DNA of 64,000 nt. Source: Novakomyces olei (taxonomy: Eukaryota). Below the pieces are notes generated by a model that searched no databases, was not told the DNA's origin, and was given only the letters and a program-made list of their open reading frames with translations. Where the stretch lies: NCBI GenBank assembly GCA_016906335.1, contig JADEYG010000002.1, positions 620,001-684,000 of the forward strand, given 5' to 3'. Positions 3,529-64,000 of the stretch are shown here, one piece after another. How positions within the stretch are numbered: the stretch's first letter is position 1; every line of letters begins with the position of its first letter. Position numbers and translations under genes: made by a program.

Positions 3529-5445
3529 ATGGCAGTTCAAACAAAGGCGGACGATTTGGAACCGCTGCGGCAGTCGCTCACGTGCGCTATTTGCGTCGAA
3601 TATATGTTCCTTCCTTTTGTGCTTCCATGCGGACATACGTTCTGCTACGCGGTAAGTTTTCTATGCAAAGGAACAGCGCTTTCCCGTCCCGTCCCGTTCG
3701 ATTTTGTATTTATTTTATTTTATTTCCTTTTTAATTTGCGAATTTGCGAAACGCGTGAAGCGTAAACGTCCAGAACGGCTAAGAAAAGTCTTGTTTGATT
3801 TATTATAAGTATTTGCTAATGTATTGTAGTGCATTAGAGACTGGTTGCAGCAGAAGAAAACGTGTCCAAAATGCCGTACTCCTATACGTACAGCTCCTCA
3901 TATATGCTACTCTGTAAGTTGCTTCACATCGCGTGTTTCCGTGCTGAAAAGCAATTAAAGAGAGAAATATCGGAAATAGAAAAGATATTGGAAAAAGATA
4001 TTGGAAAAAGATATTGGGGAAAACAAGAATAGTGGATGTTAAAATTCCAATAGTGATGATGGCATGAAAACGAAAACAGCCAAATCCGCAATGGCAGTGA
4101 CAGTGACAGTGATATCGAACTTGGTGCTAACAAATAGATGCGAGATATTGGACAGATAGTGTTTGAGCGGCTGGAATCAATGATTTCCAAGAGCGAATAC
4201 AAGAGCATGATAGATCAGCGCGACGAGCAGCAAAAAGAGTACGATTCGCGTGTGGCACAGAAAACTGTGTTTGGAGACATGTTTGCTACTCCGTGGCATA
4301 CAACCACGATTGACAGTTTAGACGGAGTTGTAAGGTGCCGTCGGTGCTTTTGGGAAGTAGAAGGCAGTCACTGTCCGCACTGTGGACTCGAGTTCTCCGA
4401 GTTTGAAGTCTCTGCCGACAATGACGAGTTTTCCTCGCATGACTTTGAGGATGGCGAAGACGATTCTGTAGACGATTATGATTACGATGATGCCTTCATT
4501 GATGATACAGAGCCACATATGCCTGGTGCCTTCCGGCCCGAGAGTGATAGTGAAGATTCAGCGATAGACAGTGAAAGCCATCATGATGAAGAGCAGCATC
4601 CTCAGCACGTGGATTTGACCGACGACAGTCTTGATGAAATCGACGATATTGATTCAGAAGAATTGGATGATATTGAGGACGAAGAAGACGAAGAAGGAGA
4701 TCTCCGTCGTCATCGTCTTCGTCATCGTCTTCAAATGATCTTGGATGAACTGGAAGACGATCGACAAGTTTTAAGTCGTGCTGAGCGGGGATGGGACGAC
4801 TTGAGGCATATTAGTCGAAATAGTTATGGGCGGGAGACTAGAAATGACAGGATAAATGCTGCGGCCAACTGGAGAACTGATCAGCCAAGGCGGTTGGCTC
4901 AAGGGTTAGGCAGGGCTCCAACACAGCATCGATATGGCTGGAATAACGAACCTGATGCAAGCAGTTGGCTCGATCATGACTATGAAGATGAGGACGAAGA
5001 GGATGATGACGATTGGGGTACTGCGTCTTCAAATGAACAAGACGATGATGCGGATGGAGATGGAGACGATGATGACGATGATGATGACGATGATGAGGGT
5101 GGAGACGCTCGTCTGCGTTATAGTAATTATGTCGCAATGCATGATGAAGGCTCTCATTTCAATGAGGAAGATTTCGATATTGACGACGATGATCTAGTTG
5201 CTATAGAGGCAAATGAACAAGAGGCAGAAAGGCGAAGGAGTCTCCGGCGGAAGGAAGAAGCTCAGTCTTCTTCCGAGAGGAGAAAAAGACAGAAACGTGG
5301 ACAAATGACGGAGGAAAGTATTTGGAGCAGTGACGATGAGCCTACGTCGAGTCGTTCGACCAGACGGCCTTATAATAGACGAGCTCCTTCAAGAATCATT
5401 CCAATCGAATCCGACGAGGATAGCTTTACAGCGCTGGCAGACTAA
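3529..5445 (+). CDS. PSH1: RING-finger E3 ubiquitin ligase, Psh1-like; introns 3652-3829 and 3914-4137
   Basis: Spliced C3HC4 RING (CAIC..PCGHTFCYACIRDW..CPKC), DGVVRCRRCFWE..CPHCG zinc ribbon, long acidic tail. Confidence 0.75.
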
Positions 5446-12230: not shown

Positions 12231-13979
12231 ATGACGCAGTCTGCGACTACAGTGACAATCCTAAATTACGGTGCGGGAAACGTCCGTTCTCTCGTGAACG
12301 CGGTAGAACGTGTCTGCCCCGGAGCACAAGTTGCTTGGGTCAAGAGTCCGCGGGATATTGAAACGGCACAGATCTTGATCTTCCCTGGTGTCGGCGATTT
12401 TGGGTACGCGGCACGGAGACTTCGAGAGCAAAATCTCGAGTCGGCTCTAAAGCAGTATATTAAAGACGGAAAACCCTTTCTCGGCATCTGCGTGGGCATG
12501 CAAGTCCTGTTTGACGGCTCACAGGAATCCTCAGAGCCGGGGTTAGGGCTTATACCCGGAACCTTAGAGAGGTTCAATGATCAAGACAAAGCGGTGCCGT
12601 GTATTGGGTGGAACAGTGTGCAATTGGAGAATGCTGAGCAAACTGCTGAGCCTGAAGACAATGGAATAGCGGACGGGCAAAAATACTATTATGTCCACTC
12701 GTACTTTGTACCTTTTGCGCCTGTACGGGGCTACGCGCTGGCCAAATCAAGGTACGGGTCGCAACTATACGTGGGCGCAATTATGCACGGACGTAACTTT
12801 GTCGCCACACAATTCCACCCAGAGAAAAGTGGGCCAGCTGGTCTTAAAGTCATAGAAACATTTCTCCTGAATCACTATGGTGGAGACAGGTCTCGGATTG
12901 TTGAGGATATCGACAGGATTGAGCGAGACATGAAGCATAGACAGGACGTTTCTAGTGACACTGCTCTAAAGGCTGATACTAGTATTAATACTACGTCTAC
13001 TTTTGCCAACAACCTGACCCGCAGAATTATAGCGTGCCTCGATGTTAGGAGCAACGACAATGGAGACTTGGTTGTTACTAAAGGCGACCAGTACGATGTG
13101 CGGGACAAGGCAGCAGGTGGAAGTGTACGTAACTTGGGCAAGCCAGTAGCATTAGCGCAACGTTACTACGACGAAGGAGCCGACGAAATAACATTTCTCA
13201 ATATTACATCCTTTAGAAACTTGCCTGTTCACGATGCCCCCATGTTACAAGTTTTGCGAGAAGCAGCCAAGACTGTTTATGTGCCCATGACTGTTGGTGG
13301 AGGTATCAGGGATGCAGTTGATCCGGATGGAACGCGATACTCGGCTCTCCAAGTGGCAGCTATGTACTTTGATTCAGGAGCAGATAAAGTATCTATTGGC
13401 AGTGACGCGGTACTCGCTGCCGAGGAGTATTATAAAAATATAAAAAATAACATTGGGCAAGAAGGATTGACTGGCTCAAGTGCAATTGAGACTATTTCAC
13501 GTGCTTACGGCCGGCAGGCAGTTGTTGTCTCTGTAGACCCCCGGAGAGTTTACGTCCACAGTCCTCAGGAGGCTCCTAGCCACCATGTTATTCGTGTCTC
13601 GAGACTCGGGCCGGAAGGCCAGCAGTTTGCCTGGTACCAGTGCACAATAAAGGGAGGCAGGGAAGGCCGAGATGTAGACGTTTACCAGCTGGTAAGGGCG
13701 GTTGAGGCGATGGGAGCGGGTGAAATTCTTTTGAATTGTATGGATCAGGACGGGACGGGCGATGGGTTTGATACGGATCTTATTAAGAACGTCAAAGAAG
13801 CCATAAGGATCCCTGTAATTGCCTCCAGTGGTGCTGGGAACCCGGAGCATTTTGCACAAGTTTTTAATGAAACTGGATGTGAGGCAGCTCTGGCCGCTGG
13901 GATTTTTCATAAGAATATCTGCTCAATTGCTTCAGTGAAAGCGTACCTTGCGCGTGTGGGTATCATTGTGCGAGATTGA
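12231..13979 (+). CDS. HIS7: Imidazole glycerol phosphate synthase HisHF
   Basis: YGAGNVRSL, FLGICVGMQ, QFHPEKSG glutaminase motifs; RIIACLDVRSND cyclase domain; AALAAGIFH. Confidence 0.97.
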   Translation: MTQSATTVTILNYGAGNVRSLVNAVERVCPGAQVAWVKSPRDIETAQILIFPGVGDFGYAARRLREQNLESALKQYIKDGKPFLGICVGMQVLFDGSQESSEPGLGLIPGTLERFNDQDKAVPCIGWNSVQLENAEQTAEPEDNGIADGQKYYYVHSYFVPFAPVRGYALAKSRYGSQLYVGAIMHGRNFVATQFHPEKSGPAGLKVIETFLLNHYGGDRSRIVEDIDRIERDMKHRQDVSSDTALKADTSINTTSTFANNLTRRIIACLDVRSNDNGDLVVTKGDQYDVRDKAAGGSVRNLGKPVALAQRYYDEGADEITFLNITSFRNLPVHDAPMLQVLREAAKTVYVPMTVGGGIRDAVDPDGTRYSALQVAAMYFDSGADKVSIGSDAVLAAEEYYKNIKNNIGQEGLTGSSAIETISRAYGRQAVVVSVDPRRVYVHSPQEAPSHHVIRVSRLGPEGQQFAWYQCTIKGGREGRDVDVYQLVRAVEAMGAGEILLNCMDQDGTGDGFDTDLIKNVKEAIRIPVIASSGAGNPEHFAQVFNETGCEAALAAGIFHKNICSIASVKAYLARVGIIVRD

Positions 13980-13988
13980 TAAGATAAC

Positions 13989-14402
13989 ATAAATATAAAT
14001 ATAAATATAAATATAAATATAAATATAAATATAAATATAAATATAAATATAAATATAAATATAAATATAAATATAAATATAAATATAAATATAAATATAA
14101 ATATAAATATAAATATAAATATAAATATAAATATAAATATAAATATAAATATAAATATAAATATAAATATAAATATAAATATAAATATAAATATAAATAT
14201 AAATATAAATATAAATATAAATATAAATATAAATATAAATATAAATATAAATATAAATATAAATATAAATATAAATATAAATATAAATATAAATATAAAT
14301 ATAAATATAAATATAAATATAAATATAAATATAAATATAAATATAAATATACATGTAATTGTAATTGTAATTGTAATTGTAATTGTAATTGTAATTGTAA
14401 TT
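13989..14402. repeat. (ATAAAT)n perfect satellite (~360 bp) followed by (GTAATT)n
   Basis: Directly visible, starting ~10 bp after the HIS7 stop, between convergent genes. Confidence 0.97.
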
Positions 14403-14541
14403 ATGCAATGTGCGGCCTGGATATGTGCATTAAATGTCTTACAAAATACATCTTGTATGTAAGCCTATCCTATACAGCACTCAAAAAAAAGTTATTTAAA
14501 TGAACTAAATGATTATGAAAATTCAAATATTAAACGATTTT

Positions 14542-17419: not shown

Positions 17420-18382
17420 ATGGTCTCGCGCCGAGCGTTGTACAACAGCACTCTGGCCGCTGGCGCGGTGGCAACAATATTAATAATTTTTGTTTTCTCA
17501 AACACACGGGCCATTCAGCCTTCGTCTTTATCAGTTCGGCTTTTTGTCGGTGTAATGAGCGGAGTGGAAGACTTTGAAAGACGTGCGCTATTGCGAATGG
17601 CTTATAACGAACAAATGAAACGCGTTAGGCCTGGTGATTACGTGGAAGTACAGTTTGCTATGGGAGAAACCGACGACCCTGTAGCGAAAAGTGCTCTCGC
17701 CATAGAGAACGCGCATTATCACGATATTCTTACAATTGCATTGCCAGAATCTAAACGCTCTACTGCCTTGACGTATCCTTTGGCTCGGGTATGTTTTTGA
17801 TCCCGTCTTTTAAAGCTACAGAGAAATTAACTCAACTAGCATCTCGGAGCTTTTCTCGCTCCCAGGGACAGGAGTCGCAACGATTTCAATTATGGGCTGT
17901 TTATAGAAAGCGATTCCTATATTGACTTGTTACTGCTGGCGGATACTTTGCGCTCATTGGCTCCGGCAACGCGTGTCTTTCTTGGCAGTACGGCAGCCGA
18001 GAGCAAGGCTTATGTGCTTTCGTGGGATATGCTGAGCCTTATCTCCAAATTTCGAGATCCCGCGCACATCGGCCCTGGAGAGGACACAGACCTGGTTCCA
18101 AAATGGCTGCAGCAAATCGACGCGTATCGGTACGCGTCATGTGCTAACGCGACTTTTGTCTCTGCTGCTCAGTGGGAAAAAGCATATATCGATGGTGCTA
18201 GGCTCGTGGCGCATAATCTTACAAGCACAAGGGCTCTTCTTGAAGTTGCGGGGCTCATGAGGGAAAGCGATTACGCTTGGCGGCCGGATGCGCCTGCACA
18301 AAGAGACCCTGATTACTACTCATCCCCTTTCAAAAACTTGAAGAGCCTCAAAACGCCTTATCGTGAGCCATTGGACGCTTGA
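17420..18382 (+). CDS. Type II membrane protein, GT31 beta-1,3-galactosyltransferase-like; intron ~17789-17839
   Basis: N-terminal TM anchor, RLFVGVMSGVEDFERRALLRMAY, ENAHYHDIL, YVLSWDM; DxD position reads ESDSY. Confidence 0.55.
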
Positions 18383-30858: not shown

Positions 30859-33072
30859 ATGGATTCGAAACTGAGCTCAAACAATCCGTTCCGATCAATT
30901 CTTGAGTCAAAGGCGAGTGGGAACATTGCCCATCGCCGTTCGCCTTCGCCCCCACAGCTACCGCGCTCAAAACCTACAAATCCGTTTTTGGTTCCGGAGC
31001 TGGACGATTTTGCTTTTGATGTTTCGCATACAGTTTTGGCGCCACAGCAGCATTCACGGTCAGACTACCACCGTGGCCGTTCTCCCAACAAGGTTTGTAT
31101 TTACAATTATTTAATTTAATTTAATTTAATTTATTTATTTATGTATTTTGTTTTATAATGGGCCTGCTTTATTTTTTTCTGTCTGTCACATTTGCGTTTG
31201 GTACTTATGGAGGCGTTTTTCCATTCTATTATAAATGTTTGCGTTGATATGGTTTATACGCTTTTAGTTATCTCCATTTCCTGTATTGCGGCGATTGATT
31301 TAATGTCTCACCCGGTACTCCTACTCGCCACGAGTCACATGATTTTTACGACCACGTGATGATTTCATAATGCCGCTTGTTTTGTTGAAATGCTGTGTCT
31401 TTGCTTTACGTTTGTTCTTCCAGTATGAGGCCTTTTTGCATCACATGATCATTATGCATTGCGCATTTATCTACTGAGAATTGCAGCTTTATCACCAGTC
31501 ATCATTTATTTTGCCGATAAGCTTTGAATAGAAACCTGTGTGTTTTTTTTTTTTATTTTTCCTCTTCGGTTTTTGTTTAATTTTTTTTTTAATTCCCTGT
31601 TTGGTCAAATTGTTTTTTTCTTTATTGTTTGCCAAAACAGCCATTCCCTTTCGCCCCCGAACGTTTGATTTTACAAGGCCAATTTCACGAATAAATTCAC
31701 GCATTGAGCCCAATAATTAACTGCCCAGGATACATCCCAAACTTTAATTGACGTTGGTTCTCGGCCAAGTTCGGCGGACTCTGCGCTGCGTACTCGGACG
31801 CACAACTACGAGAGCCGTAATCGGCACCGCTCGTCATCAATGACGAAACCCGATCGTTCTGGCCGGGATCGATTGGGCACGAAAAACTCTGGGGTATCGG
31901 CAATGTCGTCTTCTCCAGACAAACGGCATGGCAAAATTGCAGGAGGCGGCTCCTCCTCCTCCAACTCTGGATCCTCTCGGCGCAATGAAACGGAAGAGCA
32001 AAGAGCAGAGCGGCATCGTAGAAGGCGAGAGCGTGAGCGGGAAAGAGACCATGAAGACCGGCATAGGTCGGGCAGCGGTCGCAGCCGTAAAAACGGCAGT
32101 AGTAATCACCACCATTCCAAAGACACTGCGGGCAATTCGGGAGACAAACCACGCAGCTCTGGAGACAAGACAAAGTCAGGCAAGAAGCCTCCAAATTCAC
32201 TAGACAAGATTGATCGTCTAGATGTTACTGGACTATACGGCAATGGGTTCCATCACGATGGACCGTTTGATGCGTGCAATCCTTCGCGTAATAAGAACCA
32301 GCAAAAAGCGCCTGTTATGGCTTTCCCCGAGGATTCAGTGAGCAATACAATGAAACTTGGAGTTCCTGTCCCCGAGTACGATAGAGCTAGGCTGTTTGGT
32401 GAAGAGCCAGAGGCGTATGAGGACTTTGCTAATGCTCACAATGGCAGTAATAATATCGGCCATCACGCTGCAGGCAAACTCCGGCCGGCGCTTGAGGCTG
32501 TTTCAGTGGCCTCAGCGTTTGATCCAAAGCAGCCTGCTCGGGTTCATGGAGACGAGTCTCTGGGTTTGGGCACTACTACTTTTCTTGAAGGAACGCCGGC
32601 ATTCACTGCCAGCCGGCCAATGCAGAGAGCTCATTCTGACTCACGGACGCCGACAGACAACAGTTTTCTGCCTAGAAATGGCGAAAAGGATGGTGGTGAT
32701 GGTCGATTTTTGGCTCCTCTAGGTGCTGGAGGACTCGGGCGTAAACTGAGTCTCGCTCAAAGGCTTCGCAAAACGAGTAAAAGCGTTTCCTCTACCGCGG
32801 AGTCTTCGGGCAGTCTTCCTTCTTCCTCTTTAAATTTGCCATCCGCCAATTCGTCTACTTCTGCTTCTGCTTCTGCTTCTGCTTCTGCTTCTGCTGCTGC
32901 TTCGGGCAAGGAAGCAGTTGATACGGCTGTTGTTGCGTTCAGTGACAATAATCTGGGCCGAACACAATCGCAGGAAAAGACGCGTCGAGATCCATCGGCC
33001 TCAGCGGGCGGAAACGGGTTGCTGAAACGAGTACGGAGTCTTCGTGTCAGTGGTAAACGGGCAAATTCATGA
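30859..33072 (+). CDS. PAL1: Pal1 cell morphology protein; intron 31093-31728
   Basis: NPF motifs, LDKIDRLDVTGLYG, FHHDGPFDACNP, HGDESLGLGTTTFLEGTPA, LLKRVRSLRV. Confidence 0.9.
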
Positions 33073-33979
33073 TTTGGGACTGGATATACGACAGACTTTA
33101 TCAGTCTTTGCAGAGAACCATTAAGGGTAGTCAAGACCGGAAAACGAACAGACAAAAAGATCATTTATGTATTTTCTGGGAATAAAAGGACGAAAAGAGA
33201 GAGGCATTTCATATAAATACGCACACCCTGGTCATCTATTTCCTCGGTCTGATCTCTGTTTCTATTCTTTCTCACATTCGATTCTCATTTTTGGACTAGA
33301 TAACTCTTGAATAATCTGTGTTTGGATTAAAGTGGTTGGAGCTTGGTTCTTTTAGCTTAATACATTAATCATGCTAGTTGTATTTTGGAAACGCGCCTAT
33401 TGTGATTTTTTGATGGCATGGTACAGCTGGAACCCGTGTTTTTCTATTCGTTTTAATCCCAATTTTGAGAAATCTTTAATCCGGCACGTACAGAGCAATT
33501 TTGGCCAGATAAATATATGCAGAACCAATTTGTTGATGGATTTCTTTTATTTGCGGCGCCAACATTTTTTTTACAAGCAGGGAAATTTTAATAAAGGCAA
33601 CTAGTACGGTCGAGTGCCACTATAATATTTACTGTCTCGATATATTAATATAGTTGATATAAAATGAATAATTGAATATATATATATTATAGGTTTAGTG
33701 CTGTAATGTTACTTGATCACAATTACCCGCATTACGTCGTTTACATGTATATTTATGTGCAAAAATATTCCCGCATCCTATCATCATTATAGAATAGTGG
33801 CATAAATGTGTATTGCCAAGTTATACAGCTCGTGGGACAATGGATAAGTGTAAATTGTATTAGTGGAGTGAGTAATTCGCAATAGAAATTTATTATAATT
33901 ATCATTAGAAAAAGGGAGAAGAACGAAAAAATTAAAAGGCCATTAGATCAGTGACTGCCTTTGCCTGAAAGACTCAGCA

Positions 33980-35897
33980 ATGGCTGCGGTCAACAGCAAA
34001 AACTTGTTTGCGCTTCTTGGTAAGTTGTCTGGTTTTGATTCTGTTATATTTGCTTGCTCTTTTCCCATTGGCTTTTGCTGCACGATCGACTGGTCCCGGC
34101 GCTACTTGTCTCATTGTATATGAGGGAGGGAAAATTTTTTTTTCCTCAAAAGTTCTTGTGGCTGCTTTGGCAGAGAAGAGTTTTTGGTTGGCAGTCTCTG
34201 CCTTACACCTAATTCCATCACTGCCTGAGCGGGAAACGCTTTACTGCTCAATTGACTTGAAATTTCAGTATTATTATACTGAAAAGCGGGGCTAGCTTTG
34301 CGGGTCTCAGGCACAATAGTCGGATCCTGAGGCTGGCGAGTTTCCCTTCATCAATGAAGGGCTGATTTTACACCAATGCAGTAGTCTGAATAGGCCAACT
34401 GCGCGGATAAGCATCCAGCGAGAGCCGTTAACGGGTTTGCCAATGGCGTACTGAGGATTGATTTGTGTCTGCAGATTCCTGTTACATCGAACTGCGTTTA
34501 TGCACTGATCAATGATGGCTATGCAGTGAGACTCTGGAGCAATTGCACTCTACGAATTGGGTTTTGTACATCAGCGTGTTTAGCCTACTTTGTTGAGAAT
34601 AGACTTATTTCACGACACTTTTTTCGAGGGCCAGTTTGATCCAGATGCAGTGCAGCGTTAACCTTTAATACTAACAGCTCAGGCGAAGACGACACCGACG
34701 GTCAACCTCGTGTCTACGATAAAACTGCACCTCCCCGTCAGCCTGCACCTGCAAAGGAGATTTCTTCTAAGGACACGCACTCTCATAAGCGCAATCCTAA
34801 TGCACCAACGCCGCGTGAGCGTCACTTGAAAACCTCGACTGAGGGCAAGACTTTTAAGGAGCGCTCTCGTCTTGGAGGAAATGAAGGAGGTAAGCCTGCC
34901 AAGATATTACAGCAACAGTCGACTGGAAGATTAAACAGAGACAACTATATCATACAAATAAAGGGATTAATATATATTATTAATTTTATTTTATTTTATT
35001 TTATTTTCATTTAATTTCAATATTACATCAGTAATTTGTGTTGGCCTATTTGAGTTTATCATATGCTGCTTTTTTACTGTTATGTACTGTCGTTTTTCGT
35101 ACTAATTTCCAGCTTTCCGCGACAGGGCAGCAGGCCACCAGGTCAACCAGGCCAAGCCTCTTGAAGAAAACCCTGCCTCAGGAAAACGTCCTACTCCGGT
35201 CTTCAACAAGCCACGTGGAGGAGCACGTGGACGTGGCCGTGGAGGCGAACGCGGTCGTGAGTTCGATCGTCGCTCGTCTACTGGCGTTCGTGATACGCCA
35301 AAGAACGTGACGCGTGGCTGGGGAGAGGAAGCTTCTGCTGAAGCTACTGCCGAATCTCTGGCGGCCAAGGATCGTGATGAGGAGGCAGTTGAGGACGCGG
35401 TACCTACTGAAAAGGGCCCAGAGGGCGATGACGTTGTTGTCCCCGAAGACTCTGAGGATGCTGTCCCTAACGAAAAGTCCTATGACGAGTATCTCGCTGA
35501 GCTCAAGGCCAAGAGCCCAGCGGTATCAGCGCTGAAGCCTCGTGAGGCTGAGGGAGGAGATGAGTTTGTTCAATCTGGACGTTTGAACAAGCCGTCGGAT
35601 GAGGACGCCAGCTATTTCAATTTCGGATCTAAGAAGGAGCATAAAAAGGATAAAAGCAGCAAGAAACAAGGGAAACAATACGTTGAAATTGAGCAAATTT
35701 ATGCTCCTACCCCGGCTGAACGTGGCCGTGGAGGCAGCGGCAATGGCCGTGGAGGCCCTCGTGGTGGTGGCGGGCGTGGACGTGGCAATGGCAGTTCTCG
35801 TGGAGGTTCTCGAGGCGGCCACGATCGTCCGGCCGGTCGACCTGCTGCTTCGCGCCCCGTCGAGTTTAACGAGACCAACTTTCCCGCACTGGCGTGA
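33980..35897 (+). CDS. STM1: Stm1/Oga1/SERBP1-family ribosome hibernation protein; introns 34020-34682 and ~34890-35112
   Basis: N-terminal SKNLFALLG, REFDRRSSTG, GWG, KSYDEYLAE, RGG boxes, C-terminal NFPAL. Confidence 0.9.
34203..34620 (+). ncRNA. Candidate large structured intronic RNA with H/ACA-like 3' end
   Basis: Nested stems; ANANNA box ACATCA at 34568-34573; terminal hairpin CGTG..CACG; ACA followed by 3 nt. Confidence 0.45.
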
Positions 35898-36445
35898 ACT
35901 TGCTAGTTAAATCATTGACCTTTCTAATCTGATCTAGCTCCAGGTTTTAAATGTTTATTTTCAACAGCATAGTCGAGGCAAATGTGTGTGTCTGGGCTAG
36001 TCGTTACGTAGCCCTTACTTTCTAAAAGTCTCTCTTATATTGATTTTCCTGCTCTATATGTTCTTTTACTCTATCGTAGTCTTAGTTTTGTAGCCTACAC
36101 ACTTGACTGACTGTAAACTGGTGGAGGTGTTGTGTAGCACTGCAAAAAGGCAAAACTGACGTCTATCGAATGGCTGAGGTCGATTTTAAATAATACAATT
36201 TAATTTAAAATAATTTGGTCTACCTTTACGCTTTTTTAGCGCATAAGGACCAATGCCGTAACATTGGTCCCACTTTCACAACCCGTTTGGCCTATGTAAG
36301 CCTTCTTCACATGCGGGGAACATGTCAGCTTTTACATCATGGGAAGCAGAATTCTAAGATAAAAGGACGCGAATCCCTGATCAGTTTTCTCCACAACCCA
36401 CTCACTGACAAACGCATTTGAGAGAGAGTTTACACACAACCTAAT

Positions 36446-36649
36446 ATGTCTGAGCAAGTCAAAGAAGCGGCTGAAAAGGCCTCAGACGCTGTGAACCAAG
36501 GAATCGAGACTATGCAACAAACATCGCAAGATGCTCTTCAAGGCGCCCAAGATATGGCCCGCGACGCGGCAGAGGGACTCAGCGGTGCTGCTAATGACGC
36601 ACAAGCTCAAGCACAGGACGTCAGCAGCAAAGCAATGGACTCGATCTAG
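36446..36649 (+). CDS. Small LEA/hydrophilin-like stress protein (67 aa)
   Basis: A/Q/D/E-rich amphipathic repeats; clean ATG-to-stop ORF in an otherwise empty interval. Confidence 0.6.
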   Translation: MSEQVKEAAEKASDAVNQGIETMQQTSQDALQGAQDMARDAAEGLSGAANDAQAQAQDVSSKAMDSI

Positions 36650-41853: not shown

Positions 41854-42282
41854 AAAGTGATATCCTTGTCGATTTTTGGAAAATTTCTGCCGTGGCGTTT
41901 GCATTCTATTGCCATATCCATTCTTTTGGTCATGTTTGTTGGGTTTTGCTTGCTTGATACGGTGCTTTTGGATATAAATAATAATTAATTCAACTATTAT
42001 AATAATTATACTAGAATTGAACGTAATACTAGAATAATAAATATAATACGACTCATACCATCAAGCAGATTTAATCGCCAGCACATGTAACCTTGCAAGC
42101 AATATTGCTTGCGAGTAGAGGTGTACAGCTATGGGCTTACGGGTTCACATATCGCTTATATTATATGACTAAATATATAACAATTTTATAGAGCAATTGA
42201 ACCAAAGATACACAGAGCACAGAGCAATTGGACATAAAAGTCATGTATTAAAGCAGGCATTGTGTCTGTCAATTGCCACTGA

Positions 42283-43773
42283 TTAAACGGGCACTTGCTT
42301 CTCCGACCGCTGCCGCGTTTTCTCGCGGTCCGCCGATTCTGATGCGGCCAAGCGTCCGGCCAGTTTACGACGGCCATTTTCGCCTGCACGAGCAAGCACA
42401 CCGGCAATCATGCCCACGCTACGCAATGAATCGTCATTGCCCGGGATAGCGTACGTAACCCACTTTGGATCACAGTCGGAATCAATGATTCCGATAGTGG
42501 GAACGCGCCGGGCGGCACATTCGCCAAGGGCCACTTGATTCTCTCGAGTATTCAGTGCAATAACCAAGTCAGGACGAAGCATACGGGGAGCATCACGCTC
42601 GCCGCCATGTAAGAGCCCAACCAGTCGATCGTTCTCGTACCTGCGCAAAAGCCCTTGGCCGTCGTGTTCTAGTGTAATCGCTGCGTTTGTCAGGATTCCG
42701 GGGACCCAACGTTCAAAGACATGGTAGCCGTTGCAACGGCGAGCAGTATCAGTCACTATACTTTTCATGGGCTTCATTGTTCCCAGGACGAGAATAATGC
42801 CATTGCGTTCACAAACGGCCTCAACTACGCCACTCGCACGCCTCAAGTGGGACAGAGTTTCGTCCAGTGAAATGATATGAAGGCCCTGCCGTTCGCCAAA
42901 GATAAATGGCTGCGCTGCCGGATTCCAGAGCGACCGAGAATGGCCTAAATGGCACTGTGCTGCAAGTAAATGGTGCAGATTGACCTCGTGAGGAGCCGGA
43001 ATATTGGCGGCAAAATTGTGCGGCGAAAAGTTTTCGTGCTTGCGCGAGCCCAAGTGGGAAAAGATATCAGCTGGTCAACGTTTAGCAAAAACTGGTAGGC
43101 CAAGGGGAAATAGGGACACGTTTGTGCAAATCGATTTCAAGATATTTGTCAAAGAACGCATTAAACAAGTCTGCTCGACGCTGGCAGAAAGAATATCACA
43201 ATTGGCTCGTAAATGTAAATGTGCCTGGTAAATATTTGAATATAGTGTAATAATTTAGTAAGCAAAGACTGAGCAAACGAGTACCCTCAATCCCGGAACA
43301 GAGAGCAAATGCCGAAAAGGCGCAGCCCATTCGTCCAAGTAATCGTCTGCTGCAGCATTGGCCGCCTACTGCGTTTATCATACACGATAAACAAGGTAGG
43401 GGGGTACATTCAACTTGGCAGGCAAATTGGCAGGCAAATTGGCAGTAATGACAAAAGCAGGCAAAAAAAAAAAAAAAGGTATAGCCTTACCGACACGGGT
43501 GTGTCTCTGATACAGCTCATCAGAGCTTAGCTGCTCATGCACGTTAGGGGTATCTTGAGACGCTGTCAGCGAGGCATCCACGGCAGCGGCAGTAGCTGCC
43601 TCGTCGTCTTTCCGTGGAGAAGCAATCTCATCTCGCTCTACGGGACTCGTCTCATCCAAGAGCTCGTCCAGGTATCCCTGCGGCACTTTGCTGTACTGCC
43701 TCGTACTCGAACAGCGGCACGTGAAGCACCGCCGAGCCAATGCCGGTGCTGCTGCGTAAAGCCGCATCGCCAT
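42283..43773 (-). CDS. MRP4: Mitochondrial ribosomal protein uS2m; intron 43071-43490
   Basis: LLAAQCHLGH, IFGERQGLHIISL, RWVPGILTN, PTIGIIDSDCDP, IPGNDDSLRS; presequence-like exon 1. Confidence 0.92.
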
Positions 43774-44237: not shown

Positions 44238-46921
44238 ATGTCTCGGAATACGCCTTCTGGACGGCGACCTGCCAGCGATCTCGGCCACCATCACGGTGCT
44301 CCTTCGCCGTCTGGAATTCCGCTGCCACGTGGTAACGGAACCGCGTCGGCAATGGCTTCTCCGGCCGATATCGGTAGTGATGCCAGGCGCCGGCACCAGG
44401 CGCGAAAAGACGAGGTATACCGCTCTGCTTTAACCCCATCCATCCTTCATCCTCGTCCTATTTCCGCTATAAATCAATTCAATTTTTTGAATTTATTTTA
44501 GTTTAATTAATTAATTTAATTTAATTTATTTATTTTATTTTTATTTTTATTTTTATTTTTTCTTTTCTAACGCCAATAGGCGATACGCAGGCGGCTTGAG
44601 CACGATTTAAACAAGAAAAGGCCCACGCCAGCACGGACGAGGCACACGAAAAAAATCCAGCCTGGCACAGTTTCTGCTTTAAGGCCGTCAATGCCTCTCA
44701 CCGTGAATCCTCACGTGACCGTAGCAGAAGCAGCTCAATTGATGGCAGCGAAACGCGAAGACTGTGTGCTTGTTGTAAACGACGAGCAACAGCTTGCTGG
44801 TATTTTCACGGCAAAAGATGTAGCCTACCGTGTCGTTGGCCAAAACATCAATGCTCGAGATATCACGATTGAGAGCATAATGACAAAGAATCCAATGTGC
44901 ACTCAGATCGATACGTCTGCAACAGACGCGTTAAATCTTATGGTCTCACGTGGATTTCGGCATTTGGTACGCGAGCAAGATTTTTACAACGAGTATGATG
45001 GACTAACGTTCAGCCCGTAACCGATCTCGACGGCGATGTGTGTGGCATTCTCGATATAACAAAATGCTTTTATGAGGCAATGGAGAAGGTAAGGTTGGGT
45101 GGACGCGTCACAAGCTTGTATCTGTGTTTGCCGCATAAGCAGGTCTTTGCTTACAGACCTTTAATTGAAGAATTCAGTAAAGGACTAATTTGTGTGTTAG
45201 CTGGAACGGCAGTATGCTGCGTCACGCAAGCTGTTCGAGGCAATGGAGGGAGTCCAAAACGAGTGGGGAAACGCTCAACAGCCCGCTCAGTTTATCGAAT
45301 ATGTCGAAGCTTTACGACAAAAGATGTCTGGCCCAGATCTGGCTTCAGTTTTGGACGGAACTCCTCCAGTCATTGTCTATGTGCGGACAACAGTAGCCGA
45401 AGCTGCTTCTCTTATGCGCGAGCATCATACCACATCTGTTCTCGTAATGGATCAGAATAATATTGCGGGCATTTTTACAAGCAAAGACGTTGTTCTTCGT
45501 GTAATTGCTGCCGGTCTGAATCCTCAGGCATGCTCTGTCGTCCGAGTGATGACGCCACATCCTGACTGTGCTTCTCATACTCTCAGCATCTCCGCAGCAT
45601 TGCGCAAGATGAATGGTAGGTTTATATATATTGTGTTTTGTTTAATATCGATTCTTTAGTTATTTATTTATTTACACATTTTTGTTTTATTTCAAAGCAA
45701 ACTCTGCAAAATGCAAAGCCTTCGTCTATGCGCTTATGCGCCATCTATCCCGTCAATTTTTACACGGGGTGGTATTTAGACAAAGGCAGATTAATTGGGC
45801 TCGTTGAGTCTGGCCCACTGTATATGATCGGTTGGCCAGAATTTTGTAGCTCGACACTTACGATTTGTTGATCGTGCTATAATAATAATTATGGAGATCG
45901 TCAAGTTTTTTAATTATTATGATTACTATTATTATTATAATCCCCCTATTTTATTTATTTTAAAATTGAGCTCTTCTAACTGTCCAGATGGCCATTATTT
46001 GAATTTACCCGTTGTTGACGAGTCGGAACAAGTCATTGGCATGGTTGACGTCCTGAAGCTGACGTATGCTACGCTGGAACAGGTGAGCTGCTTTACTTGT
46101 ATATTTAGTTATTCATGTATTAAATTAAATATTTATTTTCCTCATTAATTTGAATCATTATTGACTGTTGGAAGATGAACTCTGGAAACGCAGAAACCAG
46201 CGAGGGGCCAATGTGGAACAGGTTCTGGAACACTTTGGGTGATGAGGACACTGATTCTGCATTGTCGGACAATATTGCTTCAAGAGCAACGCCTTCAGAT
46301 CTCACACAGGACGATGCTGCTGGCAGTTTACGGGGCAAAGCATCGGTGAACCGGTTGGCAGAAGCGAGCAAAGTTGCCGAAGTTGATCCGACAGAATCTG
46401 CCTCCCAAGTCGATGAGGCGCGTGAGCCGGGAGGCCAGGCAAAACCTCCCTCGGACGAGGTACCGTTTGCCTTCAAGTTCAAGGCTCCCAGTGGCCGTAC
46501 TCATAGATTTCAGATTACTGCAGCCAAAGATGGAGGCCATGAAGGGTTTCGTGCTCTTGTATCAGAGAAACTGGGCCCAGAAGTAGATGCCCTGGGCGGA
46601 ATTGAGCGGTACTGTATTGCCTACATTGATGACGAGGCAGATGTAGTGGAAATAATGTCCAAGCAGGATATTGTCGACGCTATAGATCTGGCTCGGCGCC
46701 AGCAGGCAGACAAGGTGGGTTTACTGGTTCACCATCCGGACGCCAGTGCAGAGTCGCTTGTGCCTTTGGATTTGCGAGGCCGAAAGGGATCTCGACGCCG
46801 TACTGGCGGTGTCGATACGTCTTCGTCAATTATCGCTGGAGTGCCAAACGATCTACTCGTGCCTTGCTCTATCGGCGTTCTCGCCGTGGCGCTTATTGGA
46901 ATATTTGCATTTCGGCGATGA
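44238..46921 (+). CDS. mug70: CBS/PB1 domain tail-anchored protein, Mug70-like; five introns
   Basis: AAQLMAAKREDCVLV, GIFTAKD, GFRHLP, LDITKCFYEAMEKLER, CSVVRVMTPHPD, FKFKAPSGRTHRF, C-terminal TM segment. Confidence 0.88.
45716..45859 (+). ncRNA. snR36: Intronic H/ACA snoRNA, snR36/SNORA36-like
   Basis: Hairpin - AGATTA (45788-45793) - hairpin - ACA (45854-45856); 3' pocket strands GTTGAGT and AATT pair around 18S AAUU-U-G-ACUCAAC; 14 nt from pocket to ACA. Confidence 0.8.
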
Positions 46922-47326: not shown

Positions 47327-49185
47327 ATGGCTTCGTCGGATAGTCGGCAATCTTCGGTTCGGCCGAGACCTCTAAGCGAGGCTAATGGCGCAACCTCGAA
47401 ATCGTACCTCTCACAGACCTCGACGGGAGACGGAGCGAGGACGCCGACGGGAGTTCCTCAGGTTGCTAATGCCCGAGCGCGTCATATGCTCCCTGTCGTA
47501 CCAATGTGCCCTCGTTCCTCGTTGATGGACCGTGTTGGCATGGGCAAGGCCACCGATTTTTCAGGGTTTTTCATATTATTTTGGGTTCGTAAGGCGGGGA
47601 AAGAGACTTGATTATTAGAGCCAACAATATATTATTTTATTATTTCTCTTGTTTCAGCTAACGGCAGATTGGCCTCTTCATCTTGTGCCTGACAACGGCG
47701 CTAAGGAACTTGCGCGATACTGGACGCGTCTTTGGCGATAATATATGGAAGCTTTTTACGACCAGACTGTTGAAGCTCGTCGTCCTGGACTGGACAATGG
47801 TGGGCAGTTCAGCGTACGTGTACCTTTTCGCGAAAGCGTACAGGACAGGGTTTCTCAGGTTCAGCAGGGCGCACCAGGCTCTGCATTTACTAATTGAACT
47901 CGGCTTCCTCGCCTTTTGGACACTGCTGAGCTACCGGCAAAAATGGTCCTGGACCCATGAAGTTTACTTTATCATGCACACAATAGTCATGGGCATGAAA
48001 ATACACTCTTACACTTTTACAAACGGACCTCTGGCAAAAGCGTTCCACGAAGCTTTGGATATTTTAAAGCAAACAACGACCACTGAGCAAGACAAGGAGA
48101 ATACCAAGCATTTGGGGGAACGAGTGGGAAATGGCTCACAAACCGCTAAAGACCAAACCCAAAAAGACCAAACTGAAAAGGTCCAAACCCAAAAAGACCA
48201 GACTGAAAAACTTGCGATTTCTGTCGGTACAGAATACTTTGATGAAAAGGCTCATTTGCAAGTAGCCAAGCTGCGTGAAATTTTGATTTCGCCCTACCAT
48301 CCTGAAATATCGTACCCTTCTAATGTAAGTTTTTCAAACTTTATTGATTACCTCCTCGTGCCTACTTTGTGCTACGAGATCACGTACCCGCGTCAGACAA
48401 CTTTCAGCGTATATTATATAGTGGAAAAGATACTGGCTACACTGGGGACACTATCCTTGTTGGTTATTATTACAGAACATCATATTCTCCCTGTTTTGGA
48501 TTATACAGACTCCAAATTATGGTCTGCGGGTATTTCGCATTTGGACAAAGCCTTGTACGTTGCTGAAGCAGTTTCCTCGTTACTGTTTCCTTTTCTGCTC
48601 TGCGTGCTGCTCGTGTTTTATATCATCTTCGAAGGGATTCTCAACGTATTTGCTGAGCTTACGTACTTTGCTGATCGCAATTTTTATGACGGTGAGTTTA
48701 TATTGTTTCTTTTTTCTCTTCTTACTCTTATTTTAGTCTTTAACCCTTTTATTCCCGTCTTTTCCTTAGCTTTGGTTTTGTCGCCTTCCTTTTCTGTGAT
48801 TACAATCTCAACGTTATTCTAATATAATTATCTAGAATGGTGGAATTGTTATAATTGGACGGCGTTTGCACGGTGCTGGAACAAACCAGTCCATCACTTT
48901 CTACACAGGCACGTTTACGTGGCATTGAGAGCCGGACGCATTTCTAAAACTGCGGCTTCAGCTGCCACGTTTCTGCTATCGGCTCTACTGCACGAACTCG
49001 TCATGTCTAGTATTTCACGGAAAATTCGAGGATACGGATTGTTTTTCCAAATGTTACAGATACCCTTTATATCGCTGGAAAAAGTCAAATTTGTCAGGGA
49101 CAGACATATCCTCGGCAATATCATGTTGTGGAGCTGCATTATCTCGGGAACGGCCATGATGTGTGTTCTTTACGTCCTTGTTTGA
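47327..49185 (+). CDS. ARE1: Sterol O-acyltransferase (MBOAT); introns ~47585-47668 and 48692-48835
   Basis: MKIHSY, PTLCYEITYPR, AELTYFADRNFYDEWWN, WNKPVHHFLHRHVY, SALLHE. Confidence 0.93.
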
Positions 49186-52700: not shown

Positions 52701-53137
52701 GCTACTGCATGCAGACCCTTCTCACGCGCAGCGGCATCCTTCTTGTTGGTCAAAAGAGTCTTGAGCGATTCAATAGCTTTTGTTGGAGCACTGGAACCGA
52801 ATTAGCAAAGGTTTAATTGGATAAAGCAATGATCCACATAGTGTGGCACGACTGTTGGATAAACGAAAAGAGACGCGGCAAAAGGGCGTAAGCCCATAGA
52901 GACGAAATGTAGGGGCATTTGGTCGCAGAAATCCAAATCGGCATCCAAAAAAATTAAAATTAAAGTCAAAACAAAAATTAAATCTGCATACTGTTGTTCT
53001 TCAATAGGTCCATTGATAAACGAGGCAATATTGCGTGAAGCAGAATCAATAGCCTCTGGAGTGCCGGCAATAGACAGCGCATTAAAGAGCTGATCCAAGT
53101 CCTTAATGGACGCCTTATTTCCGGTCTGTGCAGCCAT
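49784..53137 (-). CDS. YEF3: Translation elongation factor 3; intron 52791-52991
   Basis: HEAT N-terminus, [18 protein letters not shown], two ABC cassettes ([18 protein letters not shown]), chromo insert, basic C-terminus. Confidence 0.97.
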
Positions 53138-54062: not shown

Positions 54063-55076
54063 ATGTCGGCTGTTCCTCTACAGCTGCATTTTGCGGCAAA
54101 CACGATCCGCACAGCGGCACTGCCGTCGACACGGATCCCCGTGTTTGCTGCCCTTCATGCAGTGTACCTGTGCCGCGCTTATTTTATCGGCGTCCGAAGT
54201 CAAAGGCGGTCGCCGCCCGTCAGCTTGGCACAGGGACTAGTAAGTGTCTTGTTGAGTTTGGCTGCTGGCAGTATAGCCAGTGCCGTCCTGTTCAATCGGC
54301 CAGTAACTTTTGTACTGAGTGATGTGGCAGTGCCATTGTACTCTGCCGTCTTTGTTCTGCTCTACTACTCGTCTACTCTGCGAAATGCTCTTTTACAGCT
54401 TCCAGATCTCGTTGCGGACGCGGTGCTTCTCGTGCCGGACACGGTCTTCCGGTCCGATATGTTTTTGCGTCAAGGGTGCGATCTTGCCGCTCAGGCAAGC
54501 AAGGAATTAGGACTCGCGTCTTGTACCGTCGGCCGGGTCGTAGGAGGCGGGATTGTGGGTGCCGCTGGGCTGTTCACCGTACTCACGGGCAACTTGTTTG
54601 CGCCTGATTGGGGGGTTTCTGCGCAGGCGTTTACCGTTATCCCTCTAGAGCTTTGGGCGTAAGTTGCCTTTAATTTATAATAATAGGGGTTGGGTTCTTT
54701 ATCGGCTCAGCTTACTGCCTCGTTTGTGTTTTTTAAATTGTTTTTTCTAGGCCATTTACCTGTTCGATTGTTGATTGTTGATTGTTGATTGTTGATTGTT
54801 GATTGTTCGCCTCCTTGTAACACTATTTATTCTAATCTTAGGCCCTTTTTCATCTCTGCCCTGTACACTGTTTTGATCGGTGGCGTGCCTGCCGGTCTCC
54901 CTGCCGGTCAGACTGCAGCCCAGTTCGAAGACGCGCGTCTTATCGCCACGAGCATCTATCTCTTGTTGCGGGTGCTTAATTTCACGGGAATTTGTAATTT
55001 GTCAATTAGTGCTCCCACGCAATCTGCAACATCGGTCAAGCACCGCAAGAAGCCTCATCGCAAAAAGGAAGAGTGA
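54063..55076 (+). CDS. Multi-pass membrane protein, TRIC/TMEM38-like; intron 54660-54842
   Basis: Repeated TM pattern AAGSIASAVLFNRP..PLYSAVFVLLYY and a second Gly-rich helix; basic C-terminus. Confidence 0.5.
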
Positions 55077-62472: not shown

Positions 62473-63501
62473 TTATGCGTTCAGCTCAGCAAACTGCCCA
62501 CGCAACAGCTTAATATCCTTATCCGTAGCTTTACAGCATCCACCAACCAGAAAATCTTTCCAAAAATTGCGGTTTTGCGCTTGTCTAACAACGGTGGCCA
62601 GCTGCACTTCCCATGGTCTCGGATCACCCGGCGTTGCTTGTTCCCCCATTACTGCTGGCGCGTCCCAAGTTTTTGTAACTGGATTATACACCTGTCCGTT
62701 TGTGCCGTCAGGGTAGAGGACAAGGCACGGTGGGACAGAGCCGGTTACAGAGACGGCGGCTCTTGCTGCTTCCTCGTACTCTGCAACAAGCCGCGCCAGT
62801 TTGTGCACGGGCGCGCAATTAATGCCGATCCCCCACAACTCGGCCAATCCTTGGCCGGGGCATAATGCTGCTTCCACAGCCCGCGCAGCAATATTGCCGT
62901 CCGGCAGCGAGCAGCCGCTGCCCGGGTACACGCAGGAAACCCACGCTCGGCAATTAAAGTGCCACAATGCCCGTCTTATCGCTCTCACTTCATCCAATCG
63001 CGGGACCGTCTCAAACGCCACGTATTTGATATGCCGCTGCACACTGGGCAGCTGGAAAAACAGCTTCAGGCGGCACAAGTGCCAATGGTAGAGCTGCTCT
63101 TCGTCGCTGTGGTCTGCGTCATAGGCGCCCGTGTACTCCTGTCCCGGAGACATGGCAGCGCCGTATGGGCCGAGGCTTAAGGCAACGCTGCTCCGGCCTG
63201 CCGCAGCGGCAACTGCCGTGTCAATTGCCGACTCCAGCAGAGGGATGACATCATCACCTCGTATACCGTGGGGGAACGCTGCCGTCCGTGTGCGGGCAAA
63301 CGTATCTGCCGAAGCCTGGTACGTCGCTGTCAGTACTATATCGGCCCCAGCCAGTACAAAATCGCGCTGGCAGTTTAGCAGCGCTGATGGCTTGTTCAGC
63401 AGTGTGCCTGTAGACCATAAGGCGCCCTGTGCGTCCCTGTAATCGACTCCATACTTGTCCTCAAGACTCGTACCCAGACCGCCGTCGAGTATTTGTATCA
63501 T
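62473..63501 (-). CDS. SAM4: Homocysteine S-methyltransferase (Sam4/Mht1/MmuM family)
   Basis: ILDGGLGT, TATYQAS, SLGPYGA, AFETVP, and zinc ligands GINC and GGCC. Confidence 0.95.
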   Translation of the reverse strand: MIQILDGGLGTSLEDKYGVDYRDAQGALWSTGTLLNKPSALLNCQRDFVLAGADIVLTATYQASADTFARTRTAAFPHGIRGDDVIPLLESAIDTAVAAAAGRSSVALSLGPYGAAMSPGQEYTGAYDADHSDEEQLYHWHLCRLKLFFQLPSVQRHIKYVAFETVPRLDEVRAIRRALWHFNCRAWVSCVYPGSGCSLPDGNIAARAVEAALCPGQGLAELWGIGINCAPVHKLARLVAEYEEAARAAVSVTGSVPPCLVLYPDGTNGQVYNPVTKTWDAPAVMGEQATPGDPRPWEVQLATVVRQAQNRNFWKDFLVGGCCKATDKDIKLLRGQFAELNA

Positions 63502-63559
63502 GACTAGAAATAATTCGGCGTCATTTGTGCGCTGTATATTACAAAAAATATAAACTCAA

Positions 63560-63837
63560 TATATAAAATTATAAAATTATAAAATTATAAAATTATAAAA
63601 TTATAAAATTATAAAATTATAAAACTATAAAATTATAAAATTATAAAATTATAAAATTATAAAATTATAAAATTATAAAATTATAAAATTATAAAATTAT
63701 AAAATTATAAAATTATAAAATTATAAAATTATAAAATTATAAAATTATAAAATTATAAAATTATAAAATTATAAAATTATAAAATTATAAAATTATAAAA
63801 TTATAAAATTATAAAATTATAAAATTATAAAATTATC
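63560..63837. repeat. (TATAAAAT)n satellite
   Basis: Directly visible, about 60 bp upstream of the methyltransferase ATG. Confidence 0.97.
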
Positions 63838-64000
63838 AATATCTATGAATGAGTGTTTGTTATCGGCCGTGTAGTAAAAAAAGGCTAGAATGTGTTGGGG
63901 TTAGTATTAGCCAAATCTTTGACAAAATCAATAAACAATATCGAGCACTGTTTTAATAATATAACTATTTTGTTGGTCAGACGCTGGACGCCGGCCGCGT

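Follow-up and report, generated by a model that had tools for sequence, protein, structure and literature searches.

The structured first intron of STM1 in Novakomyces olei: a possible zipper-stem-like clamp, and a proposed H/ACA tail revisited

Introns in the yeast Novakomyces olei are mostly short, and the 663-nucleotide (nt) first intron of its STM1 gene raises two questions: how an intron of this size could still be spliced, and what the extensive secondary structure predicted within it might be for. We addressed them computationally in a 64,000-nt stretch of contig JADEYG010000002.1 (positions 620,001 to 684,000 of the forward strand; hereafter the window), in which intron 1 occupies 34020-34682. 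An original prediction, made from the same sequence, had read the intron as the host of a large H/ACA-like RNA ending in an H-box/hairpin/ACA tail, and had offered a splicing-related element of STM1 as an alternative. The analysis that follows retains the structure and gives up the tail. The reading that we prefer, tentatively and at somewhat under an even chance, is that of an outsize spliceosomal intron in which a zipper-stem-like clamp round a 425-nt structured core would keep splicing possible.

Intron 1 and its host gene

The gene was modelled as follows.

33980..34019, plus strand: STM1 exon 1, with the ATG, 13 codons and 1 nt, encoding MAAVNSKNLFALL-G; based on the sequence and on homologue N-termini
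34020..34682, plus strand: STM1 intron 1, 663 nt, with GTAAGT, TACTAAC at 34669-75, and CAG
34683..34889, plus strand: STM1 exon 2; based on translation and reading frame
34890..35112, plus strand: STM1 intron 2, 223 nt, GC content 0.27, unstructured; used as an internal comparison
35113..35897, plus strand: STM1 exon 3; carries the stop codon and encodes the HABP4_PAI-RBP1 domain

By sequence comparison the host gene is a member of the Stm1/HABP4 family, of the STM1/oga1 type. Exon 3 matches Pfam PF04774 (HABP4_PAI-RBP1) with an E-value of 1.1e-6 and 29.8 bits against a cut-off of 21.8, the predicted protein has 36 homologues, of which the best (P0001) shares 47% identity, and an Stm1-type N-terminus was recognised in a by-eye alignment with homologue P0003. 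The spliced N-terminus reads MAAVNSKNLFALLG/EDDTD, the exons meeting in ...SKNLFALLG/EDDTD.... P0003 (SKNLYDLLGNDVED; N-terminus MSQVVSKNLYDLLGNDVED) reads across the junction of exons 1 and 2 without extra residues, and homologue N-termini of the form KNLYDLLGND continue directly into exon 2 sequence. Because the homologues carry no additional residues at this point, we take intron 1 to be genuine and free of a hidden coding exon. Its extent as originally proposed is thus upheld by the splice signals and by a homologue-supported junction, and the motifs quoted in that proposal were all found at, or within one base of, the positions it gave. A tRNA scan of 33000-36500 found none.

The branch A lies at 34674, within the branch box TACTAAC (34669-75) and 8 nt before the end of the intron; counted from the 5' splice site, the branch point is 654 nt away. 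The first intron of the neighbouring EF3 gene is, on a by-eye reading, ~200 nt long, which makes that of STM1 about three times longer; this EF3 intron (52792-52991, minus strand; GTATGC ... CTAAT ... CAG, also by eye) is very AT-rich in its 5' half and GC-richer in its 3' half. The GC content of STM1 intron 1 is 0.449, rising to 0.464 between 34077 and 34656, against 0.269 for intron 2 and 0.437 for the whole window. A 300-nt window of intron 1 reaches 0.48, about the 95th percentile of the 186 windows of that length that lie outside the intron and outside open reading frames (ORFs; mean 0.346, standard deviation 0.08, 95th percentile 0.459). Five short plausible introns (3652-3829, 17789-17839, 45616-45987, 48692-48835 and 54659-54841) have GC contents of 0.31-0.35, figures that are indicative only; they come from a census by motif and reading frame that returned 12 rows, 7 of which (GC content 0.37-0.49) were dropped as overlapping or unverified.

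Two short elements in and near the gene may be recorded here. The word CAGTGACTG at 33949-33957, 23 nt 5' of the STM1 start codon, includes the reverse complement of CAGTCAC, which we take to be the HomolD box of Schizosaccharomyces pombe ribosomal-protein promoters, and CAGTCTCTGCC at 34192, within intron 1, is a near-copy of this promoter-side CAGTGACTG.

The predicted fold of intron 1

The minimum free energy (MFE) of the whole intron is -214.7 kcal/mol. On the sense strand none of 120 dinucleotide shuffles folded as well (z -3.57), so that the shuffle control named as a check in the original prediction came out in favour of the fold; on the antisense strand 5 of 120 did (z -1.82), and a smaller control of 20 shuffles gave a z of about -2.1 for both strands. 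Sliding 200-nt windows placed the signal at 34100-34400, with minima of z of -4.2 for the sense and -3.0 for the antisense strand; over 34350-34749 both strands stayed between -0.13 and +1.94. For the core at 34108-34532, z was -4.91 on the plus strand (0/100 shuffles as good) and -2.92 on the minus strand (1/100). Intron 2 is unstructured by the same measure (plus strand, z +0.78, with 156 of 200 shuffles as good).

The predicted ensemble is also sharply defined. Its diversity of 94.4 compares with 171.7 +/- 30.7 in shuffles, of which 1 in 45 was as low. Bases with a partner at a pairing probability (P) above 0.9 make up 35%, compared with 16% in shuffles (2 of 45 as high), and some 25 helices stand at P>0.7. 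Among the 152 high-probability pairs 31 (20%) are G-U, and these pairs account for the better fold of the sense strand relative to the antisense. This share of G-U pairs argues for structure at the level of RNA, not for DNA palindromes.

The predicted architecture consists of two nested long-range helices and the core that they enclose.

34077..34096, plus strand: outer clamp, 5' strand, GCUGCAC followed by GAUCGACUGGUCC; pairs with 34628-34656
34628..34656, plus strand: outer clamp, 3' strand, GGGCCAGUUUGAUC, an 8-nt bulge and GUGCAGC; ends 12 nt before the branch box
34108..34120, plus strand: inner closing helix, 5' strand, 13 base pairs (bp); pairs with 34520-34532, -22.1 kcal/mol, mean P 0.98
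34520..34532, plus strand: inner closing helix, 3' strand, 13 bp, partner of 34108-34120
34108..34532, plus strand: structured core, 425 nt, with a hairpin at 34121-48, a sub-domain, and an arm at 34424-34519

The outer clamp has a 13-bp part, in which 34084-96 pairs with 34628-41 around one bulge (P 0.92-0.98), and a possible extension, in which 34077-83 can add 7 bp with 34650-56 over the 8-nt bulge. Cofolding of the full 7 + 13 bp gives -28.3 kcal/mol, and a windowed duplex measure gives -27.0 kcal/mol, a value attained in 1 of 300 shuffles and in 3 of 126 genomic pairs with this geometry. The outer stem between 34077-34096 and 34628-34656 had been part of the original prediction, and it stands. 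A second long-range stem proposed with it, between 34207-15 and 34554-62 (-9.3 kcal/mol), is missing from the high-probability helices, its bases being paired locally; the actual inner clamp is the helix 34108-20/34520-32. Inside the core, the sub-domain is closed by 34154-67/34409-23 and contains six abutting hairpins (34169-34406). The statement that the intron folds almost end to end can therefore be kept in part: the sense-strand fold, the nested end-to-end helices and the 425-nt core agree with it, but the stretch 34533-34625 is at chance level.

The proposed H/ACA tail and searches for known RNAs

The following features bear on whether the intron contains a recognisable RNA.

34568..34620, plus strand: tail motifs, ACATCA at 34568, CGTG at 34575, CACG at 34611, GACACTT at 34614, ACA at 34615-17
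34223..34395, plus strand: weak H/ACA-like candidate, with a hairpin at 34223-34312, ACAAUA at 34313-18, a hairpin at 34320-89, and AUA at 34390-92
45734..45859, plus strand: snR36-like H/ACA small nucleolar RNA (snoRNA) inside an intron at 45617-45988, matching Rfam RF01439 (S_pombe_snR36)

According to the original prediction, intron 1 would yield an oversized, snR30-like H/ACA RNA of ~420 nt, whose 3' end is made up of ACAUCA, a CGUG..CACG hairpin and ACA-CUU at 34568-34620. The motifs are indeed present there and the intron upstream of them is highly structured, and there is a likeness to snR30/U17 in the size range and in the order of a large structured 5' part followed by short motifs resembling the H and ACA boxes. 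An ACATCA of the ANANNA form, which an H/ACA RNA carries in its hinge, and an ACA, which it carries three nucleotides from its 3' end, are, however, short enough to be expected by chance, and the structure that should accompany them, a 3' hairpin made up of a lower stem, a pocket and an upper stem with ACA immediately after it, did not emerge: 34533-34625 folds as its shuffles do (z +0.05, 142 of 300 as good), and 34568-34620 reaches only -5.9 kcal/mol, with a 4-bp AU-rich closing stem and without a pseudouridylation pocket. The heptamer GACACTT, cited as a 3' end shared with a snoRNA near 45859, is uninformative, as it occurs 4 times in 64 kb where ~3.9 occurrences are expected. The intron further differs from snR30/U17 in having no 3' hairpin with m1 and m2 in an internal loop, an unstructured tail, and no Rfam match. 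Searched with motif sequences that we presume to be the m1 and m2 of snR30/U17, intron 1 contained no m2-like 7-mer with at most 1 mismatch, and one m1-like 9-mer with 2 mismatches, at 34473 in an apical region. We consider an snR30-like RNA ending in this tail to be very improbable.

Searches for other RNA families were similarly negative for intron 1. At the gathering level Rfam returned no match, and no rRNA lies within the window. Scans by E-value of the intron region and of its parts, including 34200-34420 at E<=10 and 34400-34682, found no convincing family; the Rfam check that accompanied the original prediction has thus been run, and no family was assigned to the intron region. A match to SNORA1 at 34107-34182 was rejected because it covers half of the model and scores 22.9 bits where 70 are required (E 0.057-0.4), and the remaining matches were obvious noise. 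A scan for box C/D RNAs, defined by a C box with at most 1 mismatch, a D box CUGA 40-250 nt downstream and a terminal stem of at least 4 bp, gave 0 candidates in intron 1 on either strand. Telomerase-template, Sm-site, U1/U2/U5-like and RNase P/MRP-like motifs were looked for by eye only, and nothing convincing was seen.

The snR36-like RNA serves as a positive control for the E-value scan. RF01439 matches it with a score of 23 bits (E 0.019), short of the 50 required at the gathering level, with the pocket strands conserved and an ACA at 45854-56, and its 372-nt host intron (45617-45988, plus strand) folds better than all of 100 shuffles (z -4.08). The "clear snoRNA" noted earlier near 45859 gains support from this match, and 45734-45859 is, on the sequence evidence, probably an snR36 orthologue missed by the gathering threshold.

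Explanations for the structured intron

[quoted passage not shown] A path of that order is close to the ordinary intron length in this genome, and the long intron would thus remain spliceable; the clamp could also give the cell a handle on STM1 expression. Calculated from the outermost helix, the linker is 57 + 12 = 69 nt (range 69-74), and from the 13-bp part it is 64 + 27 = 91 nt (range 91-96), whereas the linker window reported for zipper stems of Saccharomyces cerevisiae is 42-85 nt (PMC12350175). The zipper stems described in RPS17B, RPL7A/B and RPL28 of S. cerevisiae (PMC12350175, PMC12311795) likewise lie in ribosome-related host genes, and the interior described for the RPL28 intron resembles that of STM1 intron 1 in its multiway junctions and long stems. 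STM1 differs in belonging to a distant, Taphrinomycotina-like yeast with mostly short introns, in a geometry that fits the rule in part, and in a clamped interior (425 nt, z -4.9) whose size and order go beyond what a simple zipper would require. The alternative in the original prediction, a splicing-related element in an STM1 intron, fits the nested helices and the defined 425-nt fold that we predict, even though its main H/ACA reading fails.

Several observations weigh against this explanation. In S. cerevisiae a zipper stem should keep a distance of 20 nt or more from the branch point, and the outermost 7 bp come closer than that, at 12-17 nt; the 13-bp part, at 27-32 nt, lies far enough away, but its total linker of 91-96 nt is slightly above the limit of 85. 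These distances were worked out for the spliceosome of S. cerevisiae, and as intron 1 conforms to them in part, we would say that the clamp may work like a zipper stem rather than that it is a tested member of the class. A looser measure of the duplex between the whole arms did not reach significance: 219 of 1000 shuffles gave as good a value, and so did 71 of 191 genomic pairs. The splice signals are mostly paired in the predicted ensemble, with probabilities of being unpaired of 0.33 for the 5' site, 0.27 for the branch box and 0.17 for the 3' site, so that splicing would be hindered rather than helped. Background segments of 663 nt (n=12) had a mean z of -0.48 (standard deviation 1.17), one of them reaching -3.33, and the fold of intron 1 accordingly lies in the tail of the background distribution and is not unique. 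Finally, a zipper accounts for the clamp and not for the structured 425 nt of normal GC content inside it, which might serve as a platform for regulation in cis or be processed into a stable RNA.

A repeated word near the 3' splice site may be noted alongside these points. CTCAGGC occurs at 34306 and again at 34678, across the 3' splice site, and both copies are complementary to 34222-30; the splice-site word GCUCAGGC (34677-34684) and the internal (C)UCAGGC(A) (34306-34313) are perfect complements of 34222-34230. The two pairings could be mutually exclusive, one of them masking the 3' splice site, or they could be due to chance. Together with the paired splice signals, the repeat would fit a regulatory switch, and this too could be chance.

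The most serious competitor to the clamp as a splicing aid, though we think it somewhat unlikely, is that intron 1 hosts a stable non-coding RNA trimmed from the excised intron, either the 173-nt unit at 34223-34395 or the whole 425-nt core, with the clamp serving mainly to keep the host intron spliceable. The unit scores a scanner total of -50.9 kcal/mol, which none of 35 shuffles reached (best -37.6; 0.26 H/ACA candidates per shuffle on average), and in a constrained fold its upper stems end at 34299 and 34374; by hand count this leaves 14 and 15-16 nt to the respective boxes, compared with the 14-16 nt expected between the top of an H/ACA pocket and the H or ACA box that follows it. A GC-richer structured island in an AT-rich intron marks a real snoRNA elsewhere in this genome (45617-45988), and the STM1 core (z -4.9) is as structured and as GC-rich as that host intron of the snR36-like RNA. 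As with the intron-hosted H/ACA snoRNAs of yeasts, the island lies in an intron of a housekeeping gene, and a hairpin-ANANNA-hairpin-AUA arrangement can be drawn in it. The constrained fold is, however, at -46.7 against an MFE of -61.1, or 14.4 kcal/mol above the optimum, the basal stems are virtually never formed in the ensemble of the whole intron (P about 0), AUA stands in place of ACA as the 3' box, and the pockets, of 4+6 and 5+9 nt, would be small. The procedure that recovers the snR36-like RNA finds no Rfam H/ACA family in 34200-34420 at E<=10, there is no C/D candidate on either strand, and the GC-rich part extends over ~600 nt, where an intron-hosted H/ACA snoRNA has an island of 130-200 nt between AT-rich flanks such as those of the snR36 host intron, which STM1 lacks. 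We keep the H/ACA-like unit as a weak rival only. In a further version, which we judge quite unlikely, the core 34108-34532 would be a new lineage-specific intron-encoded RNA, released or kept with the excised intron, that links STM1 splicing to growth state. Stable excised linear introns of S. cerevisiae accumulate on inhibition of TORC1, a very short distance from branch point to 3' splice site being reported as both necessary and sufficient for their stabilisation (10.1101/426049). In STM1 intron 1 this distance is 8 nt, and STM1 encodes a ribosome preservation factor under TORC1 control (PMC9975950). A short branch distance nevertheless looks normal in this genome, to judge by reading intron 2 and the intron at 45617-45988, and no structure common to the stable introns is reported in 10.1101/426049.

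Two explanations dispense with a role for the RNA. The intron, or its interior, might derive from a small transposon with inverted repeats or from an introner-like element; the clamp would then be formed by terminal inverted repeats, and the fold would be a by-product. Introner-like elements of fungi are reported to exceed regular introns in length and to have stable predicted structures (PMC3609843); STM1 intron 1 shares both properties and has ends that pair, and a 20-nt inverted repeat (34077-99/34625-56) brackets ~580 nt with a GC content unlike that of other introns. It differs in lacking another copy in the 64-kb window, where the best other blastn match is 28 nt at 82%, and in lacking a target-site duplication, the flanks of the repeat being CCATTGGCTTTT and GTTAACCTTTAA. 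The 20% of G-U pairs and the asymmetry between sense and antisense point to the RNA level and not to DNA-level symmetry, and none of the 6 ORFs within intron 1 has a Pfam domain at E<=1; we regard a mobile-element origin as improbable. The neutral explanation, that nothing functional is present and that a long intron of near-average GC content has a favourable fold by chance, seems to us unlikely, if less so than a mobile element. It can call on the one random segment in 12 with a z of -3.3, on the ~5% of non-ORF windows that equal the intron in GC content, on the non-significant duplex test of the whole arms, and on the fact that no family, box set or conservation speaks for a function. What speaks against it is that partly independent oddities coincide in the same intron: length, a GC content in the top ~5%, a core z of -4.9 with strand asymmetry, a sharply defined ensemble, and a clamp matched by 1 of 300 shuffles. 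The outlying background segment, 42001-42663 (z -3.33 on the plus and -3.01 on the minus strand), covers an AT-rich gap, a near-perfect palindrome at ~42093-42115 and the terminal stretch of an ORF on the minus strand.

Other features of the window and significance

Elsewhere in the window, the neighbouring EF3 protein is 72% identical to that of S. pombe, 69% to that of Saitoella and 90% to homologue P0037, and by these identities the organism looks like a Taphrinomycotina-like ascomycete from a poorly sampled group. A metagenome scan with the exon 3 protein gave 188 pattern matches and, by tblastn, 0 relatives, and a degenerate pattern of the exon 1 peptide followed by GTAAGT matched once, in a contig (L001) that on inspection by eye is AT-rich and unrelated and has an apparent tRNA gene. 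On the minus strand, 13868-14051 gives a weak match to the Plasmodium RUF3 family of Rfam (41 bits, E 0.11) where long ORFs overlap on both strands (13907-14503), and this is probably a compositional oddity. A very weak match to the H/ACA-type Rfam family GlsR24 at 62813-62932 (plus strand; 20.6 bits, E 0.84) may point to a further unannotated snoRNA or be noise. The end of the window, 63556-64000, is extremely AT-rich (GC content 0.14).

As it stands, our result chiefly corrects the original prediction, in that the structure is real and the H/ACA tail is not. Should the core prove to be a new RNA, it could for instance be a starvation-stabilised intron RNA of a ribosome-hibernation gene. If the clamp and the core are conserved, STM1 intron 1 would offer a clear case of a zipper stem beyond the Saccharomyces lineage, in a poorly sampled, early-diverging ascomycete and in the gene of a TORC1-controlled ribosome preservation factor. 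The intron would then be a simple system in which to learn how RNA structure lets yeasts with short introns tolerate an outsize one, and to ask whether outsize introns carry regulatory or stable RNAs.

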